A stretch of DNA of 15,934 nt from a virus (taxonomy: Duplodnaviria; Heunggongvirae; Uroviricota; Caudoviricetes), in the IMG/VR virus record IMGVR_UViG_2529292919_000020; one strand, given 5' to 3'. The translations under genes were made by a program, and so were the position numbers. How positions within the stretch are numbered: position 1 is the stretch's first letter; every line of letters starts with the position of its first letter. This document shows positions 3,422-15,934 of the stretch, piece by piece. Under the pieces are notes generated by a model. The model did no database searches, was not told where the DNA came from, and saw only the letters and a program-made list of their open reading frames with translations.

Positions 3422-3709
3422 ATGAAAAATAAAAATTCTGGCTTTACTGCCAGCGGCCCCGCTCGGCCTGAAATCCGCCCCGGCGATATTTTCCGGGATA
3501 ACTATGGCGGCACGGTAACGATAAAAGGCGTGGCAGAACGGCGCATCACTTACCGCCGTGATGGCTACGAATATGACTGCGTGATGCCTGTTTATCAGTT
3601 CCGGCGTGATTTCACGCTGGTGGGCCATCGTAAAGCCGTAAATCAGAAACGTGCAGCAAGTCATATCCGCAAAATTCGTGAAATGCTGGTCGCAGGGGGT
3701 AAAAAATGA
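3422..3709 (+). CDS. Hypothetical basic protein (95 aa), translationally coupled to the replication initiator
   Basis: ORF-track ORF. Its stop overlaps the start of the downstream gene in an ATGA arrangement (3706..3709). Confidence 0.55.
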   Translation: MKNKNSGFTASGPARPEIRPGDIFRDNYGGTVTIKGVAERRITYRRDGYEYDCVMPVYQFRRDFTLVGHRKAVNQKRAASHIRKIREMLVAGGKK

Positions 3710-5520
3710 AACTGGCACCGAACGTAAAACAGCAGTTACGCGGCATAAAACACAAAGAAACAGAAGTCATTATTTTTGCGGGTAGTGATGCCTGGTCACA
3801 CGCAAAACAATGGCAGGAACATGACGCGCGTATGGCCGGAGATAATGAGCCTCCTGTGTGGCTTGGGGAGCAGCAGTTATCCGAACTGGATAAGCTGCAA
3901 ATTGTGCCGGAAGGCAGAAAATCCGTGCGCATATTCAGGGCCGGATATCTTGCGCCAGTAATGATAAAGGCGATTGGTCAGAAGCTGGCGGCGGCAGGCG
4001 TACAGGATGCAAATTTTTATCCTGAGGGTATGCACGGCCAGGAGGTGCAGAACTGGCGCGAATATCTGGCCCGTGAGCGCCAGAATCTTTCTGATGGTCT
4101 GGTGATTCAGCTTCCTGTTAAGAAAAAAACAGAAGACAGCGCCGCACCACTGGCGCTTAACCAGATGGGAGCAAGCCAGCGCGGCGAAGTTCTCCTGGCA
4201 CATTATGGCGGTGAACTGGCGATTCATGCCGACTCTGACACTGTTCACCATTACAACGGCGTTGTATGGGAGCCGATTCAGGATAAAGAGTTACAGCGTG
4301 CTATGGCGCAGATTTTCATTGATGCGGAGATCAGCTATTCGCAGAACGCCATTAAATCGGCGGTCGATACCATGAAGTTAAGTTTGCCTGTAATGGGGAA
4401 TACAGCCCGTAACCTGATTGGATTCAGTAACGGGGTATTTGATACCAGAACAGGTAATTTTCGGGAGCATAACAAAAACGACTGGTTGTTAATTGCCAGT
4501 GAATTACCTTTCAGCCCACCAGCAGAGGGGGAAACGCTGGCAACACATGCGCCGAATTTCTGGAAGTGGTTACGCCGCTCGGTGGCAGAGAATGACCGCA
4601 AGACGGATCGCGTGCTGGCTGCATTATTCATGGTGCTGGCGAACCGGTACGACTGGCAGTTATTCATTGAGGTAACAGGTCCAGGGGGAAGTGGTAAAAG
4701 CGTGATGGCGGAGATTTGCACCATGCTGGCGGGTAAGGCCAACACAGTATCGGCAAGCATGAAGGCGCTGGAAGATGCAAGGGAACGCGCGTTAGTGGTT
4801 GGCTTTTCGCTGATTATCATGCCGGATATGACCCGCTACGCTGGTGATGGCGCAGGAATTAAGGCCATTACAGGCGGTGACAAGGTGGCAATCGACCCGA
4901 AGCATAAAGCCCCCTACTCAACACGCATTCAGGCGGTCGTGCTGGCGGTGAACAATAACGCCATGTCATTCAGTGACCGCAGCGGGGGGATCTCACGTCG
5001 TCGGGTGATATTCAATTTTTCGGAGGTTGTACCGGAGAACGAGCGCGACCCCATGCTGGCAGAAAAAATAGAAGGAGAGCTGGCGGTTGTGATTCGCCAT
5101 CTGCTTACTCGTTTTTCTGACCAGGACGAAGCTAAACGCCTGCTGTATGAGCAGCAGAAATCAGAAGAAGCTCTGGTGATAAAACGCGAGGGCGATTCGC
5201 TGGTGGACTTCTGTGGCTATCTCATGTCGTCGGTAATGTGTGATGGTCTGTTAGTGGGTAATGCCGAAATTATTCCGTTCAGTCCGCGCAGGTATCTTTA
5301 TCACGCCTATCTGGCATATATGAGGGCACACGGATTCGGTAAACCTGTAACACTGACGCGCTTCGGTAAAGATATGCCGGGGGCAATGGCGGAATATGGC
5401 AGGGAGTATATAAAACGGAAAACGAAGCACGGTTTGCGTTCAAATGTGACACTGACAGAGGATTCAGAAGACTGGATGCCATCATGTGCATCGGTCACAA
5501 ATGACGACAGCAAAAATTAA
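3706..5520 (+). CDS. Replication initiator (pri-rep) with P4-alpha-like C-terminal SF3 helicase / origin-binding region; N-terminal ~200 aa of unassigned family
   Basis: 604-aa ORF with strong SD (CAGGGGG). Walker A GPGGSGKS, followed by a region resembling the phage/plasmid primase P4-family C-terminal (D5-like) helicase domain. Sits immediately upstream of an iteron array. Confidence 0.85.
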   Translation: MKLAPNVKQQLRGIKHKETEVIIFAGSDAWSHAKQWQEHDARMAGDNEPPVWLGEQQLSELDKLQIVPEGRKSVRIFRAGYLAPVMIKAIGQKLAAAGVQDANFYPEGMHGQEVQNWREYLARERQNLSDGLVIQLPVKKKTEDSAAPLALNQMGASQRGEVLLAHYGGELAIHADSDTVHHYNGVVWEPIQDKELQRAMAQIFIDAEISYSQNAIKSAVDTMKLSLPVMGNTARNLIGFSNGVFDTRTGNFREHNKNDWLLIASELPFSPPAEGETLATHAPNFWKWLRRSVAENDRKTDRVLAALFMVLANRYDWQLFIEVTGPGGSGKSVMAEICTMLAGKANTVSASMKALEDARERALVVGFSLIIMPDMTRYAGDGAGIKAITGGDKVAIDPKHKAPYSTRIQAVVLAVNNNAMSFSDRSGGISRRRVIFNFSEVVPENERDPMLAEKIEGELAVVIRHLLTRFSDQDEAKRLLYEQQKSEEALVIKREGDSLVDFCGYLMSSVMCDGLLVGNAEIIPFSPRRYLYHAYLAYMRAHGFGKPVTLTRFGKDMPGAMAEYGREYIKRKTKHGLRSNVTLTEDSEDWMPSCASVTNDDSKN

Positions 5521-5530
5521 ACTTATGGAA

Positions 5531-5760
5531 TAACTGTTCACCACTGTTCACCCTGTGATAAATATCTTTTATATCAGTACATTATAGGGTGAACAGTTAT
5601 TTGTGAACTGTTCACCAAACTATTCACTGTTCACCTTTTTGATTATTTATTGAGCTTTAAGGGTGAACAGTGGTGAACAGTTGGTGAATAGTTTTTGTGA
5701 AACTGTTCACCCCTTAACATTATGAATAAAAAGGGAAAATCTCAAAAGGTGAACAGGTGA
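5531..5760. repeat. Replication origin iterons: about ten copies of CTGTTCACC / GGTGAACAG in both orientations, with an adjacent AT-rich tract
   Basis: Forward copies start at 5534, 5545, 5608, 5627, 5703. Inverted copies start at 5588, 5662, 5672, 5748, plus a degenerate GGTGAATAG at 5683. Neighbouring copies are 10-11 bp apart. AT-rich AAAAATTTTATTTTATT at about 5774..5790. The core TGTTCACC is the octamer I recall as the alpha-binding iteron of P4 ori1/crr. Confidence 0.8.
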
Positions 5761-6512: not shown

Positions 6513-7043
6513 ATGACAACGCTGACCATTAACCGGAAGCCGAAAGGCATTTACGGCACGCCGCAGAAAACGACGCAGGCGGCGCAAGAGCAGGATAAAA
6601 CCACATCGGCGCATAAAGTGATACCCGGCAATCAGAACGCACAGCAGAAGCCCACAGGGGCGACACCGTGGCAGCATATGACCAAAAGGCAGCGCAAAAA
6701 CCGCCGACGCGTTAACCGCCTCACTGAGATGTGGCCTGACTTATTCAGCCATAAAGCACCGAAGCCGCTTAAGGTGGGGATATTCGACGACCTGATGCAG
6801 GATATCGCCGTCAGGGGGCTGGCATTCGGGCCGGGGGTATTACGTGCGACGCTGGCATCCTATGCGCAGTCTCCGCGCTATTACCGCGCCCTGATAGCTG
6901 GTGGCGCACGTTACGACCTGAAAGGCCAGCCATGTGGGGAAGTGACACCACAGGAACAGCAGGAGGCAGAAACACGGCTGATGGTGCTGAATGAGAAGCA
7001 CAAGCGCCAGCGCCGGGCAGCAAAGGGGGATACATGCCAGTGA
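6513..7043 (+). CDS. ProQ/FinO-domain RNA-binding protein
   Basis: 176 aa with strong SD (GGGGAAGG). ...WPDLFSHKAPKPLKVGIFDDLMQDIA...LRATLASYAQSPRYYRALIAGGARYDLKGQPCGEVTPQEQQEA matches the ProQ N-terminal / FinO fold signature (PLKIGIF-DL ... LR-AL--Y--S-RY ... R-DL-G-PCGE). Confidence 0.8.
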   Translation: MTTLTINRKPKGIYGTPQKTTQAAQEQDKTTSAHKVIPGNQNAQQKPTGATPWQHMTKRQRKNRRRVNRLTEMWPDLFSHKAPKPLKVGIFDDLMQDIAVRGLAFGPGVLRATLASYAQSPRYYRALIAGGARYDLKGQPCGEVTPQEQQEAETRLMVLNEKHKRQRRAAKGDTCQ

Positions 7044-11907: not shown

Positions 11908-13552
11908 GTACGCAGAAGGCGTAAAAAACGGCAAAATTACGGCCTGTAAACGACTGAAACAGGCCGTTAAACGGTATTTTTCTGACCTTGAAAACCCCCT
12001 TTACACGTTCGATCCGGAGGTCGTGGAGCGGTTTATTGCCTTTTCCAGGGTGTGTCCGCACGTAAAAGGCGCAATGCGCGGTAGCCCCATTGAGCTGGAG
12101 CCGTGGCAGCAGTTCGCCTTTGCGTGCATCCTGGGCTTTAAGGTTAAGGCCACCGGACGGCGCAAATACACCAGCGCATTCATTGAAGTGCCGCGAAAAA
12201 ATGCCAAATCCACGGTCGCCGCTATCCTGGCTAACTGGTTTCTGGTTATGGAAAACGGGCAGCAGGATATTTACACCGCCGTCGTGAGTCGTGATCAGGC
12301 GCGGATCGTGTTTGATGATGCGCGTCAGATGTGCCTTTTATCCCGACCGTTACGAAAGCGGGTAAATATTCAGGCACACAAGGTGATACACCCGAAAACC
12401 AACAGCCTGTTAAAGCCACTGGCAGCAAAAGCGGCAACCATTGAAGGTACAAACCCGAGTCTTGCCATTGTGGATGAATATCACCTGCACCCTGACAACG
12501 GGGTTTATTCCGCGCTTGAACTGGGAATGGGGGCGCGTCCGGAGGGGCTGTTATTTGCCATCACCACATCGGGGAGCAACGTTGTTTCAGCCTGTAAACA
12601 ACACTACGACTATTGCTGCCAGATACTGGATGGTGAAGAGGTGAACGAATCCATGTTCGTGCTGATTTACGAGCTGGATGATGAAAGCGAGGTTGACGAT
12701 CCGGCGATGTGGATAAAGGCGAATCCCAATATCGATGTTTCCGTCGATCGTGAAAAACTGGCCTCAACCATCCAGAAAGCGCGGGGTATTCCGTCGCAGT
12801 GGGTGGAAATGCTCACCAAGCGATTCAATATCTGGTGTCAGGGGGCCACGCCGTGGATGGGTAACGGTGCATGGGCGGAGTGCGCCGGAACGTTCGCGGA
12901 GGCGGATTTATACGGTCAGGAGTGCTACGCGGGGCTGGACTTATCATCAACCAGCGATATTTCCAGCGTGTGCTATGCCTTTCCGGTCGGTAAAAAGATT
13001 ATGCTGGTTTCCCGTCACTATCTGCCGGAATTTCAGCTACAGAACCCCGCCAATAAAAACCGCGCCATCTATCGCCAGTGGGTAAAGGCGGGCTGGATAC
13101 GCACAACACCGGGTGACTGCATTGATTATGACCGTATCCGTGATGACATCATGGCGGATGCAGAGAATTTCAATATCAGGCTGGTGGGCTTCGATACATG
13201 GAACGCCACGCACCTGAGGACGCAGCTACAGGGGGCAGGATTTGAGGTGGAGCCGTTCCCGCAAACATACCTTCGTTTCAGTCCGGCGGCGAAATCGTTC
13301 GAAGTTTTTGTTAACCGGAAGGTGATTGTGCATCGTGGTGATCCGGTGCTGGCCTGGTCAATGAGTAATGTTGTGATGCAGAGTGACGCGAACGCCAATA
13401 TCAAGCCGAACAAGAAAAAATCATCCAACAAGATAGACCCGAGCGTTGCGGCGCTGATGGCGTTTGGCACATTCCAGGCAGAGCATGAAGATTTTGCCTT
13501 TGATATAAGCGACAGCCACAAAGAGCGGCTTGCGGCGTTTGATGGTGTATAA
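11891..13552 (+). CDS. terL: Terminase large subunit (ATPase/nuclease)
   Basis: 553 aa. The start is probably TTG at 11891, overlapping the terS 3' end by 17 nt; the next in-frame ATG is about 60 codons downstream and would remove the conserved N-terminus (WHEYAEGVKNGKITACKRLKQAVKRY). Walker A-like VPRKNAKST. Length and position typical of terL. Confidence 0.9.
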   Translation: MTAWHEYAEGVKNGKITACKRLKQAVKRYFSDLENPLYTFDPEVVERFIAFSRVCPHVKGAMRGSPIELEPWQQFAFACILGFKVKATGRRKYTSAFIEVPRKNAKSTVAAILANWFLVMENGQQDIYTAVVSRDQARIVFDDARQMCLLSRPLRKRVNIQAHKVIHPKTNSLLKPLAAKAATIEGTNPSLAIVDEYHLHPDNGVYSALELGMGARPEGLLFAITTSGSNVVSACKQHYDYCCQILDGEEVNESMFVLIYELDDESEVDDPAMWIKANPNIDVSVDREKLASTIQKARGIPSQWVEMLTKRFNIWCQGATPWMGNGAWAECAGTFAEADLYGQECYAGLDLSSTSDISSVCYAFPVGKKIMLVSRHYLPEFQLQNPANKNRAIYRQWVKAGWIRTTPGDCIDYDRIRDDIMADAENFNIRLVGFDTWNATHLRTQLQGAGFEVEPFPQTYLRFSPAAKSFEVFVNRKVIVHRGDPVLAWSMSNVVMQSDANANIKPNKKKSSNKIDPSVAALMAFGTFQAEHEDFAFDISDSHKERLAAFDGV

Positions 13553-13557
13553 CGAGA

Positions 13558-13842
13558 GTGAGCGAAACCGAACTACTAAAAATAATCCGCCGCATTACCG
13601 GAATCAGCCAGGAAGCAGGCAAACAGGAGGCCACGCAGCCGGACAGCGTGATAGCCGAAAATTACGCGCGTGTGGTGGCTGAGGTGATGCGCCGTGATGG
13701 TATTGAGCTTAACGGCGTGGATATGCGCTACATACGGATCAGAGTTCTGGAGTTGTTGTCATATCGTCGCCGCGTGGAGATGTACCAGGAGAAAGAAAAA
13801 ATTACTTACCACTGGAAGAAGCCGGAGCGGTTGCGGCGGTAA
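13558..13842 (+). CDS. Hypothetical protein (94 aa) downstream of terL; last ORF of the element
   Basis: ORF-track ORF with GTG start and weak RBS. Charged, helical-looking sequence with no recognisable motif. Its stop codon lies inside the first copy of a 23-nt direct repeat. Confidence 0.4.
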   Translation: MSETELLKIIRRITGISQEAGKQEATQPDSVIAENYARVVAEVMRRDGIELNGVDMRYIRIRVLELLSYRRRVEMYQEKEKITYHWKKPERLRR

Positions 13843-14003
13843 CTGGTTGATATTCCCGACGGTCCAAAAATGGGTTGGCTACACCCCTCACAACTACGAC
13901 ATTTTCGCAGTTTAATTAATGGTCAGCTTAATCGCTAACCCGCTGATATTTTCGGAAACCTCAATTTGAGGAAGTCGGCGCGGTAACTGTTTGATATTCC
14001 CGA
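13837..14003. repeat. 23-nt direct repeat CGGTAACTG(G/T)TTGATATTCCCGA (13837..13859 and 13981..14003, 1 mismatch), part of a diverged ~140-bp tandem duplication
   Basis: Direct reading. A second shared block CTAACCCG(C/T)TGAT occurs at about 13936 and 14069. Confidence 0.5.
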
Positions 14004-14334
14004 TAACGCAAAATTGCGCTGGATGAATGAACATTATGTTACTTATGATTACGCAGATGATTAAGGCCTAACCCGTTGATTCTTCCACAATCCCCCATTG
14101 GGGGAGGCTGGGCGGCCTGCTGTGGGCTTTTCCACCATTGGTGGAAAGGTGCAGATCTGAATCATCATTACGGTGATCAAGGGTATGTAAAACCCACCAG
14201 CCTGATTGACATTTAACCGGAAAAAAAGCCAGGTAGCCCCGTTATGGGGATCCCCATATCGACATTAACGCCCCTCATGAATTGGCGTGCTTTCCCCTGG
14301 AAAGATGACCCGCCTGTATATTTCTTGTGTCTAT

Positions 14335-14391
14335 TTGTTCCACGTTGTTTCATACAGTGCACCGAACGGTGTAGTTAATGGTGTAGTTAAT
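14335..14391. repeat. Third copy of the phased TTGTTC motif (14335..14351, 2 units 10 bp apart) followed by a perfect tandem GGTGTAGTTAAT x2 (14368..14391)
   Basis: 14335..14352 (TTGTTCCACGTTGTTTCA) is an 18-nt exact match to the reverse complement of 1295..1312. The 12-bp tandem duplication was read directly. Confidence 0.45.
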
Positions 14392-14473
14392 TTGCGATTT
14401 TTGGTACTTTTTGTAGTGCAAATTATTTAATTAAATCAATGCCTTATCTTAATTTAGTGATAAAAGGACATAT

Positions 14474-15934
14474 TTATTCATCTTTCGGCGCAGAATGCTG
14501 GCGACCAAAAATCACCTCCATCCGCGCACCGCCCAGCATGCTCTCTCCGGCGACGATTTTACCCTCATATTGCTCGGTGATTTCGCGGGCTACGGCCAGC
14601 CCCACACCTTGCCCAGGGCGTAAAGTATCAACCCGTTGACCACGGTCGAAAATGACCTCTCGCTTGCTTAATGGAATACCGGGGCCATCATCCTCGACCA
14701 CAATATAGAGATGCTCGTCGGTTTGCCTTGCAGAAATTTCGACAAACTCGAGGCAATATTTACAGGCGTTATCCAGCACGTTGCCCATCACTTCGACAAA
14801 ATCATTCTGCTCACCAACAAAGCTGATTTCTGGCGAGATATCGAGATAGATATTGACCCCTTTGCGTTGATACACTTTGTTCAGCGCCGAGGTGAGATTG
14901 TCCAACAGTGGGGCGACCGGATGCAGCTCGCGGCTAAGCAATGTCCCGCCGCGCATACTGGCACGATGCAGGTAGTAGCCAATTTGCTGTGAAATGCGGC
15001 TGATTTGCTCCAGCATTACCGGCTCAGCATCACTGACGCTCATCTTCTCACTACGCAGAGAACGCAGCGTACTTTGCAGCACCGCCAGTGGTGTTTTCAG
15101 ACTATGGGTCAGGTCGGTGAGCGTCGTACGATATTTGTCGTAACGTTCGCGTTCACTTTTTAACAGTCGGTTCAGGTTTCGTACCAGACTGGTCAGTTCT
15201 CGCGTTGTGGCTGGATTGAGCAATTCACGGTTATGTTCTTCCAGTTCGCGGACTTCTTTTGCCAGGGCTTCGATGGGGCGTAAACTCCACCAGGCGGCGA
15301 CCCACAGCAGCGGGATCACTAACAGCAGATTGGCTGAGAGCACATAGATAAACCAGCTCCAGACCATATAGGAACTTTTTAGCTCCACCGGAATGGTATC
15401 CACCACCACAATGGTTAACTTTGGCATCCGCGATGTTGCCGGGTAGACGTTTACCGCCACCGAGTGGGTCATCTCCGCGTCGTCATCATCTTCCCGCACT
15501 TCCTGCAACTGTTGCTGTATCGAATGATCTCCACTCAGCAAGAGGCTGGTATCGTTAACATCCGCTTCAATTTCATGAAAACCATTCGATTTCAGCCAGT
15601 CAGGCTGGATCATCTTCATCAGCCAGGGCACGTCACGTTGCGCCCATAAAAGCTGCCCGTTCTCATCATAAATTAGTGTCATCGTGGGGCTTTGCTTGTC
15701 GATATTTTCGGGTAACTCGACATGCAACTTATTGTTTTCCCACTTCGCAAGGGTATAGAACAGATTGCTCTCGCCACGTAACAGCCGAAACGTGGTTTTA
15801 TCGAAACTGACGCTATAACCGATCAGCGCAACCATTCCGTAGGCAAGCGAAAGCACCAATACTACTGCTGCCGTTGCTAACAGAAAACGTACCCGCAGCG
15901 AGAGCGGGAAAAAAAGATGCAGTAATTTTTTCAT
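14474..15934 (-). CDS. phoQ: Sensor histidine kinase PhoQ (PhoP/PhoQ two-component system)
   Basis: 486-aa ORF. From memory the sequence is near-identical to E. coli PhoQ ([76 protein letters not shown]... ending ...[10 protein letters not shown]). Periplasmic acidic patch EDDDDAE, HAMP, phosphoacceptor His in [12 protein letters not shown], and ATPase G-boxes. The start codon is at the window edge. Confidence 0.95.

Follow-up and report, generated by a model that had tools for sequence, protein, structure and literature searches.

The closest described counterpart of the element reported here lies inside a phage gene: the Roi protein of phage HK022 reportedly binds a site in its own gene beside a site for integration host factor (IHF), and IHF is said to stabilize this binding; roi and rha genes are harmful to phage growth in IHF mutants. 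IHF sites are also familiar from the attP arms of lambda-type elements (H1, H2 and H′), and from those bacterial interspersed mosaic elements (BIMEs) of Escherichia coli, the repetitive IHF-binding palindromic (RIP) or reiterative ihf BIME (RIB) elements, that combine repetitive extragenic palindromes (REP) with an IHF site. The usual form of the IHF core site is TAAC-NNN-TTGAT-W, that is, YAANNNNTTGATW (equivalently WATCAANNNNTTR). Here we describe an array of such sites at the right end of the viral record IMGVR_UViG_2529292919_000020; the 15,934 nucleotides of this record that were analyzed, hereafter the window, are an EcCIEDL933-like, capsid-forming phage-inducible chromosomal island (PICI), situated between roxA and phoQ of E. 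coli. The array extends from 13837 to 14149 and consists of four modules, each with an IHF site and a dyad, plus one module with a dyad only, all in tandem and co-oriented. The true repeat unit is a module of 44–48 nt in which the IHF consensus YAANNNNTTGATW is followed, across a T-rich spacer, by a perfect dyad of 11–15 bp at a fixed offset (22–23 nt from the first base of the IHF site). The components, with the open reading frame (ORF) from whose end the array begins, are these:

13558–13842, plus strand: the last ORF of the island, 94 amino acids, phrog_1561; its stop codon TAA (13840–13842) supplies the first three bases of the IHF site in module 1.
13837–13880, plus strand: module 1, A subtype; exact IHF consensus TAACTGGTTGATA at 13840–13852, weak dyad GGTCCAAAAATGGGTT at 13861–13876.
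13933–13980, plus strand: module 2, B subtype; IHF-like TAACCCGCTGATA at 13936–13948 (one mismatch), T-rich spacer, perfect dyad CCTCAATTTGAGG at 13959–13971.
13981–14025, plus strand: module 3, A subtype; exact IHF consensus TAACTGTTTGATA at 13984–13996, dyad CGCAAAATTGCG at 14007–14018.
14066–14112, plus strand: module 4, B subtype; exact IHF consensus TAACCCGTTGATT at 14069–14081, dyad TCCCCCATTGGGGGA at 14091–14105.
14125–14149, plus strand: module 5, a dyad without an IHF motif, GGCTTTTCCACCATTGGTGGAAAGG, of the SSU5 ant / Rha type.

The array resembles the HK022 roi region in that a short perfect dyad adjoins an exact IHF consensus and the order of the two is the same, with a spacer of 13 nt in HK022 roi versus approximately 9–10 nt in most array modules. 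Unlike the phage genes, each of which carries a single copy within coding sequence, the window has four or five copies that are non-coding and display many dyad types side by side, in an element without a Rha-domain gene. The lambda-type attP-arm sites also match YAANNNNTTGATW and also lie in the arm region of an integrative element, whereas the array is further out, differs in copy number from island to island and does not depend on the specificity of the integrase; apart from it, the island possesses an att-proximal IHF site (14434–14446) and an arm motif (14368–14391) of its own. With BIME/RIP elements the array has in common a repeated extragenic IHF site with short palindromes, a position at the 3′ end of an operon, and a variable copy number; in contrast to these elements, it contains no REP, is absent from island-free E. 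coli, is co-oriented rather than alternating, and derives from phage gene sequence. A keyword search found no description of such an array in those portions of the full-text PICI literature that it covers, including the main PICI papers and PMC10111431; the single-copy Roi/IHF site is known, and its multiplication into a non-coding satellite array appears to be new.

The IHF consensus is strongly over-represented: there are five exact matches in the whole window against 0.72 expected, three of them in the array, one on the minus strand at 14434–14446 near the att core, and one in phoQ. Module 2 adds to the three exact array sites a fourth with a single mismatch. To avoid circularity, we also derived a motif-blind profile, in which units from related islands were anchored only on eleven known dyad sequences and the sequence upstream was then examined (47 distinct contexts); this replaced an earlier profile that was anchored on all palindromes and proved too noisy. 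Information peaks at positions 1–3 and 8–12, which are the bases specified by IHF; it is low at positions 5–7, and position 4, where C predominates, has an intermediate value; at position 13, A and T are found in 23 contexts each. The exact consensus occurs at the fixed offset in 26 of the 47 contexts, and 37 have it with at most one mismatch. The tract flanking the WATCAA side reads ATTTTCGGAAA or TTTCGAAAA in the B subtype and ATTCCCGA in the A subtype. From this sequence profile we infer that IHF probably binds each module.

A preliminary description of this region had recognized a diverged tandem duplication of approximately 140 bp that begins inside the stop codon of the last ORF. The sequences on which that description relied are present: CGGTAACTGGTTGATATTCCCGA at 13837–13859 and CGGTAACTGTTTGATATTCCCGA at 13981–14003 are identical at 22 of 23 positions; CTAACCCGCTGAT (from 13935) and CTAACCCGTTGAT (from 14068) form a second pair; and the pattern TAACNNNNTGATWYT has four exact copies, at 13840, 13936, 13984 and 14069, all on the plus strand, of which the first begins with the TAA stop codon of the last ORF (13840–13842). 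With up to one mismatch, TAACNNNNTGATWYT has seven matches in the whole window versus 0.81 expected, a number that none of 200 shuffles reached. The 140-bp unit itself does not hold: the two supposed copies can be aligned over only 43 nt (79% identity), and Tandem Repeats Finder reports no array of about that period at the right end. The spacings of 144 and 133 nt arise instead because two module subtypes alternate, with unrelated sequence between them. The array also reaches further right than had been thought, to approximately 14149 rather than 14110. Separately, we noted a TTATGATTAC-like repeat at 14026–14061, between modules 3 and 4, which could encode a 13-residue peptide, MNEHYVTYDYADD, and which is exactly duplicated in L001 (a near-identical capsid-forming PICI) and in Sakai.

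The same slot was compared across related islands by taking the region after the last ORF from 13 annotated E. coli/Shigella loci and 80 viral-contig loci, and 61 distinct sequences resulted; in GTDB genomes, a protein-based scan recovered one locus only. A strict count, which covers the 700 nt that follow the last ORF and accepts no more than one mismatch to TAAC....TGAT, gives 0 to 8 copies per island, the Sakai array having eight; a looser count, which allows two mismatches and requires a hairpin, rises to 11 copies and is noisy. All copies share one orientation, and the order of the modules is shuffled among islands. The module period in related arrays is 48–54 nt: from one start to the next, 48 and 54 nt are recurrent distances, and longer ones reflect inserted sequence. 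The same module types are found at seven integration sites, namely phoQ, tqsA, clpS (cspD–clpS), yejO, caiT, tRNA-Ile, and the inside of a phage portal gene, and at all seven the array has the same slot and orientation, with its beginning at the stop codon that ends the last ORF. The module types are also found with three different kinds of packaging module (HNH/TerS/TerL, lambda-cos TerS-type and DUF1441-type).

Another key feature to emerge from this comparison is the dyad. We collected 92 distinct units with a short perfect palindrome at +19 to +26 (mostly +22/23) from the first base of the motif; their 40 distinct palindromes represent at least 12 unrelated stem sequences, including CCTCA/TGAGG, CCCCC/GGGGG, CGCAA/TTGCG, TTCGCC/GGCGAA, CTGCA/TGCAG, CAGCC/GGCTG and TTCCACAG/CTGTGGAA. 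A short conserved RRNYCGG directly follows the palindrome. In an alignment of 21 array units with four phage-gene units, which are related rather than independent samples, compensatory double changes occur in five of the six dyad pairs; 88% of dyad cells are paired, versus 31–53% after a shift of the partner by one to three columns, and none of 500 shuffles reached the observed covariation score. The five inner pairs of 79 units comprise 377 Watson–Crick pairs, one G–T and one A–C; the near-equal counts of the two mismatches fit a double-stranded DNA dyad better than an RNA hairpin, although this is a weak test. Neither these counts nor the folding of both strands reveals which strand is transcribed.

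Searches by BLAST of the array against phage genomes and plasmids gave short matches of 27–54 nt, mostly at 81–91% identity (one 27-nt match is 96% identical), and the genes annotated beneath them are roi, the anti-repressor gene ant, a Rha-family regulator and a DNA-binding protein; identity to the roi, ant and Rha genes is 83–91% over 35–54 nt. In every case in which the strand was checked, the match is antisense to the phage gene. Module 2 has a dyad of the HK620/H-19B roi type and matches HK620 roi at 32 of 35 nt; module 4 is similar to the JLK-2012 and VT2-Sakai roi modules. A scan of viral contigs for relatives of Roi returned 80 near-identical loci, which were of no use for assessing diversity. 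The antisense strand of the matched phage genes carries the following:

HK620 roi: IHF consensus exact, dyad CCTCAATTTGAGG.
JLK-2012 roi: IHF consensus exact, dyad TCCTCAATTTGAGGA.
VT2-Sakai roi: IHF consensus exact, dyad CCACCATTGGGGG.
WGPS6 anti-repressor gene: IHF consensus exact, dyad CCTGCAATGCAGG.
Stx2a-EH2201 gene for a DNA-binding protein: IHF consensus exact, dyad TTCGCCATTGGCGCA.
ST64B sb54 (a 'transcriptional regulator' in RefSeq, with a UPF_BP1 homologue called KilA-N): IHF consensus with one mismatch, dyad CAAAGCTCTTTTTTGAGCTTTG.
SSU5 ant: no IHF consensus, dyad TTCCACCATTGGTGGAA.

Eight genes were mapped, and in seven of them, all Roi/Ant/Rha genes, the match is to a variable wing segment (around codons 23–59) that lies between the conserved helix-turn-helix (KRHDNVKRTIE...GVI) and a conserved YVFEGEQGKRDS; only ST64B sb54, a member of another family that lacks this domain, differs, being matched at codons 70–74. 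In HK022, roi is an intact ORF of 241 amino acids (L186 5656–6381; record coordinates 34655–35380) that is unannotated in NC_002166.1. Its wing segment, in which Roi and IHF reportedly bind cooperatively, contains at codons 41–56 the only exact IHF consensus within 8 kb spanning O, P and Q, and 13 nt separate this site from the dyad CTGCATTGCAG. For Roi and IHF, PMC3430580 and PMC4587872 cite Clerget & Boccard (1996; J Bacteriol 178:4077).

A dyad also occurs at the same gene position in distant members of the family: TCCTCAAATTGAGGA in a Klebsiella phage, CCTGCAATGCAGG in the Pseudomonas phage JBD68 and CTCAATCTGAG in APSE-2. Bearing in mind that CCT and GCA are rare codons in Pseudomonas, the JBD68 dyad is kept against codon bias. 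Judged by sequence, then, the module is a conserved nucleotide-level element of Rha-domain genes, with its dyad traceable as far as Pseudomonas phages, which bears on the harm done by roi and rha in IHF mutants. Genes with the same dyad have the same recognition-helix motif, this being VKRTIE in HK620 and JLK-2012, and VK(V/I)SI(D/E) in HK022 and WGPS6; helices associated with other dyads differ. This is a small hint, from few and non-independent cases, that the dyads may be operators.

The homology to coding sequence raises the question of whether the array itself encodes protein. Read on the minus strand, the modules give HPAQFCVIGNIKQLPR and RLPQIEVSENISGLA (module 2), which are in frame with each other; module 4 gives PPMGDCGRINGLGL, to be compared with RHPQIEDCGRINGLGLN in JLK-2012 Roi, and module 5 gives TFPPMVEKPTAGRPA, identical to residues 23–37 of SSU5 Ant. 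These frames are broken: stops intervene, the frame changes between adjacent modules, islands differ in their ORFs, and the array holds no minus-strand ORF of 50 amino acids or more. The conserved flanks of the Rha domain were never found in the arrays, only the module of approximately 50 nt. We conclude from the broken frames and the missing flanks that the conserved IHF bases and the dyad symmetry do not come from protein coding. A minus-strand gene of repeated wing peptides was rejected for its short, inconsistent ORFs with stops and frame changes. Peptides made by stop-codon read-through (the plus frame is open between TAA codons) were also rejected: the variation is not of the synonymous type, and a 52-nt spacing in relatives breaks the frame. 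A CsrA sponge or type III antitoxin array was discarded in view of loops without GGA and units that are too dissimilar. No tRNA or tmRNA was found.

We tentatively hypothesize that the array is a multivalent platform acting at the level of DNA, on which IHF and the Roi/Rha-family proteins of co-resident or helper phages would assemble, and that it may serve as a decoy or a sensor. The modules are copies of an element that phage Rha-domain genes (roi, ant, rha-like) contain in single copy. According to the proposal, every module would be bound and bent by IHF, and the dyads, of more than a dozen types, would serve Roi/Rha-family DNA-binding proteins as operators; in this way the island would capture those phage proteins. 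That Roi-type proteins bind the dyads, and that the array has any consequence for the island, is inferred more weakly than the binding of IHF. A more specific version of the proposal, which we consider unlikely, is that the array is a shuffled library of operator-plus-IHF modules, copied from many Roi/Rha/Ant autoregulatory sites, that captures Bro-network proteins of helpers or competitors; once captured, these might provide a sensory input to island induction or be drained by the decoy, altering the lytic programme of the helper.

Several observations weigh against a platform for IHF and Roi-type proteins. IHF is abundant, which makes a pure titration of IHF implausible. No Rha-domain protein was found among the proteins encoded by the island. 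For the A-subtype modules, whose dyads are of the GCGCAAAATTGCGC type, the collection searched yielded no counterpart in phages; nor do the listed phage matches to the array of the Sakai island include HK106 and HK446, the helpers known for EcCIEDL933. The array units are drawn from related islands rather than independently sampled, so the covariation figures overstate their independence. Finally, approximately 13 of the 61 related islands (for example L021, L022, L031, L035 and L041) have another array in this slot, consisting of five GTGAC(A) repeats with a 10-bp period within the ~70 nt that follow the last ORF; the island family can thus do without the module array. This fact, like the missing counterparts of the A subtype and the missing helper matches, tells against an essential role.

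PICIs are major gene-transfer vehicles in Enterobacteria, and the array is a concrete candidate for a cis element in the interaction between satellite and phage, linked by sequence to antirepressor-family genes and to IHF. Because of that link, and because some part of the right-end interval that includes the array is matched in approximately 30% of complete E. coli genomes (see below), it is a testable candidate. According to a 2018 study (PMC6092414), the phage signal that induces Gram-negative PICIs was at that date unidentified.

The rival that fares best, though we regard it as doubtful, sees the array as a polar transcription barrier: a minus-strand hairpin, the sequence UUUYCGAAA and an IHF roadblock would together stop read-in from the flanking host gene, which here is phoPQ. 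The co-orientation of all modules would suit such a device, as would the visible geometry of hairpin and T-tract and the fact that both strands fold slightly better than shuffles (z about −2). Moreover, at four of the sites the flanking gene is directed into the right end of the island (phoQ, the promoter-proximal part of tqsA, yejO and tRNA-Ile); at clpS, caiT and the portal gene, however, the gene on the right flank is directed away from it. In phage roi/rha, the single copy might by the same logic be an IHF-dependent attenuator, and this variant would explain why these genes harm phage growth in IHF mutants. A terminator scan, on the other hand, finds none on the minus strand of the array; its single result is a weak plus-strand stem at 13828–13845, no more than shuffles give. 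Furthermore, the U-tracts are short, several modules are without one, the stems lack G–U pairs, and a barrier leaves the variety of dyad types that have been kept unexplained.

It is decidedly unlikely, in our view, that the array is debris, that is, fragments of antirepressor genes duplicated by recombination or slippage between the TAAC repeats that flank the module. Such an origin would account for the homology of the modules to coding sequence, for periods that are often multiples of three (48, 54, 96, 135), for the TAAC at both borders of the module in phage genes, and for copy number and order that vary widely, some islands having no array at all. It does not account for the selectivity of what is retained: the ~50-nt module is present, and never the strongly conserved coding sequence that flanks it, and although the reading frames decay, the dyad remains symmetrical and the bases that IHF specifies persist. 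The constancy of position and orientation at seven integration sites is equally difficult to reconcile with debris.

We also considered whether the array is an antisense RNA, located in the 3′ untranslated region of the late operon of the island and silencing helper roi/ant mRNAs. The antisense orientation of every strand-checked match and the lack of a terminator between the last ORF and the array are in its favor, as are the 25 consecutive bases, counted by eye, that are identical between module 2 and HK620 roi within the 32/35 BLAST match. Nevertheless, this explanation is improbable. The places where identity falls are precisely the N4 and W positions within the IHF site: it is mainly there that the array and its phage homologues differ, the IHF-specified bases being kept (module 2 has CGCTAACCCGCTGATA where HK620 has CCCTAAGTTATTGATT, for example), and differences so confined would fit recognition by IHF better than pairing with a phage transcript. 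The loops have only 2–4 nt. Rfam 15, which includes the C4/IsrK immunity RNAs, has no match at gathering threshold in the window, and nothing relevant up to E = 10 in the region or in the Sakai array. EcCIEDL933 is, moreover, harmless to its helpers.

A cis replication region like P4 crr, which is a pair of 120-bp direct repeats, or a terminase-binding site like cosB is very improbable: the island does have a P4-alpha-type primase, and the array directly follows terL, but 13800–14480 contains none of the eleven TGTTCACC iterons of the window, and the array is common to islands with very different packaging modules. In classical PICIs there are two copies of the lambda cosN GGGCGGCGACCT, one on each side of rpp/terS and both located upstream of the last ORF; the loci with a match do not include L001.

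The preliminary description had favored either stacked recombination-site remnants, left by serial integration at the same att site, or an arm-type protein-binding array. Direct repeats at the end of an element do invite such readings, which as accounts of the array as att remnants or integrase arm sites are scarcely credible: the att core is present once, the array has no copy on the attL arm (the motif is not found in L001 2006–2254, one mismatch allowed), it lies 360–640 bp from the core, and the same modules recur at seven att sites. What survives is the narrower notion that, by its sequence, the array is of a protein-binding type. The features that do relate to integration lie to the right of the array:

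14368–14391, plus strand: doubled 12-mer, GGTGTAGTTAAT ×2; candidate integrase arm-type site, outside the array.
14434–14446, minus strand: att-proximal IHF site with exact consensus, between the arm motif and the core.
14466–14475, plus strand: att core, GGACATATTT here and GGGCATATTT in attB/attL/attR of relatives; right boundary of the island, overlapping the phoQ stop codon.

The single occurrence of the core, GGRCATATTT (GGGCATATTT, one mismatch allowed), is that at 14466–14475, and the conserved TTAATTAAATCAAT of the att-proximal IHF site adjoins different cores in different islands. The doubled 12-mer is an arm-site candidate, distinct from the array, because it is on both arms and its sequence tracks the integration site: it is also found upstream of int in attL (L001 2208–2231), and is replaced by GGTGTAGTCACT at tqsA, by GTGTATTGCAGT in the portal-embedded island and by AGGTATCCTAT at tRNA-Ile. 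On this sequence evidence it is likely to be the true integrase arm-type site. A doubled TGTATTGC motif, with copies ~81 and 132 bp from the attP centre, was reported by Tommasini et al. (2023; PMC10111431), and in the consulted portion of that paper only for helper-embedded PICIs; it is the portal-type doubled 12-mer of our comparison, and the geometry at 14368–14391 is similar. The published motif and the array occur in the same island family and the same right-end region, and the motif corresponds to the 12-mer at 14368–14391 and not to the array, of which the consulted portion of that paper gives no description. For annotation, this separates three easily confused features of the right end: module array, arm-type motif and att core. 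We also observed a near-perfect 22-bp palindrome, CGTTATGGGGATCCCCATATCG, at 14240–14261; islands integrated elsewhere (L016, L017) have related sequences (GATATGGGGATCC...) at their right end.

The extent of the island is defined by comparison with E. coli genomes. In an island-free strain the roxA–phoQ spacer is only 75 bp, and from this and the attB/attL/attR comparison it follows that the whole of 13843–14465 is island DNA, which disposes of the objection, raised in the preliminary description itself, that 13843–14473 might be host intergenic sequence shared with island-free relatives. Host sequence, from approximately 14466 onward, is present in all 5,426 complete E. coli genomes; 90 of them carry most of a query covering the right end of the island (13500–14600), and some part of 13800–14300, an interval that includes the array, is matched in 1,609 (~30%). 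Prophage Sp7 of Sakai is at the same site, in the position of O-island 51 of EDL933, and is taken to be the EcCIEDL933 prototype.

The last ORF, at whose stop codon the array starts, has an invariant C-terminus (...KKPERLRR*) and belongs to a narrow family (37 clusters among 1.8 billion representatives) that was not found in the phage collection. Its AlphaFold2 model is a three-helix protein (pLDDT 68), with no Pfam match, no informative fold match and no likeness to the Rha domain. In FDAARGOS_1249, which has a near-identical island, the gene order, supported by Pfam, is integrase, AlpA and Icd-like genes; then P4-type primase, SSB and a ProQ/FinO protein; then HK97-type capsid, protease, portal and connector; and finally HNH, P27-type TerS, TerL and the last, 94-residue ORF. 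This gene set is that of capsid-forming PICIs. The ProQ/FinO-domain protein is encoded in the window at 6513–7043 (Pfam E = 1e-23), where related islands have a PerC-family regulator. Directly after the primase gene (3706–5520), nine P4-type alpha iterons (TGTTCACC) are located at 5535–5755 in both orientations, a cluster that is likely to be the replication origin; two further copies lie inside the primase gene, making 11 in the window overall. We noted, in addition, that Chi (GCTGGTGG) occurs 13 times in the 15.9-kb window versus 0.63 expected from shuffles (for example, at 885, 2138, 3616, 5199, 6080, 6897, 9059 and 13180 on the plus strand, and at 2876, 3063, 4516, 6106 and 14194 on the minus strand), a density several-fold higher than is usual for E. 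coli; Chi or near-Chi sequences are also found within the arrays of related islands.

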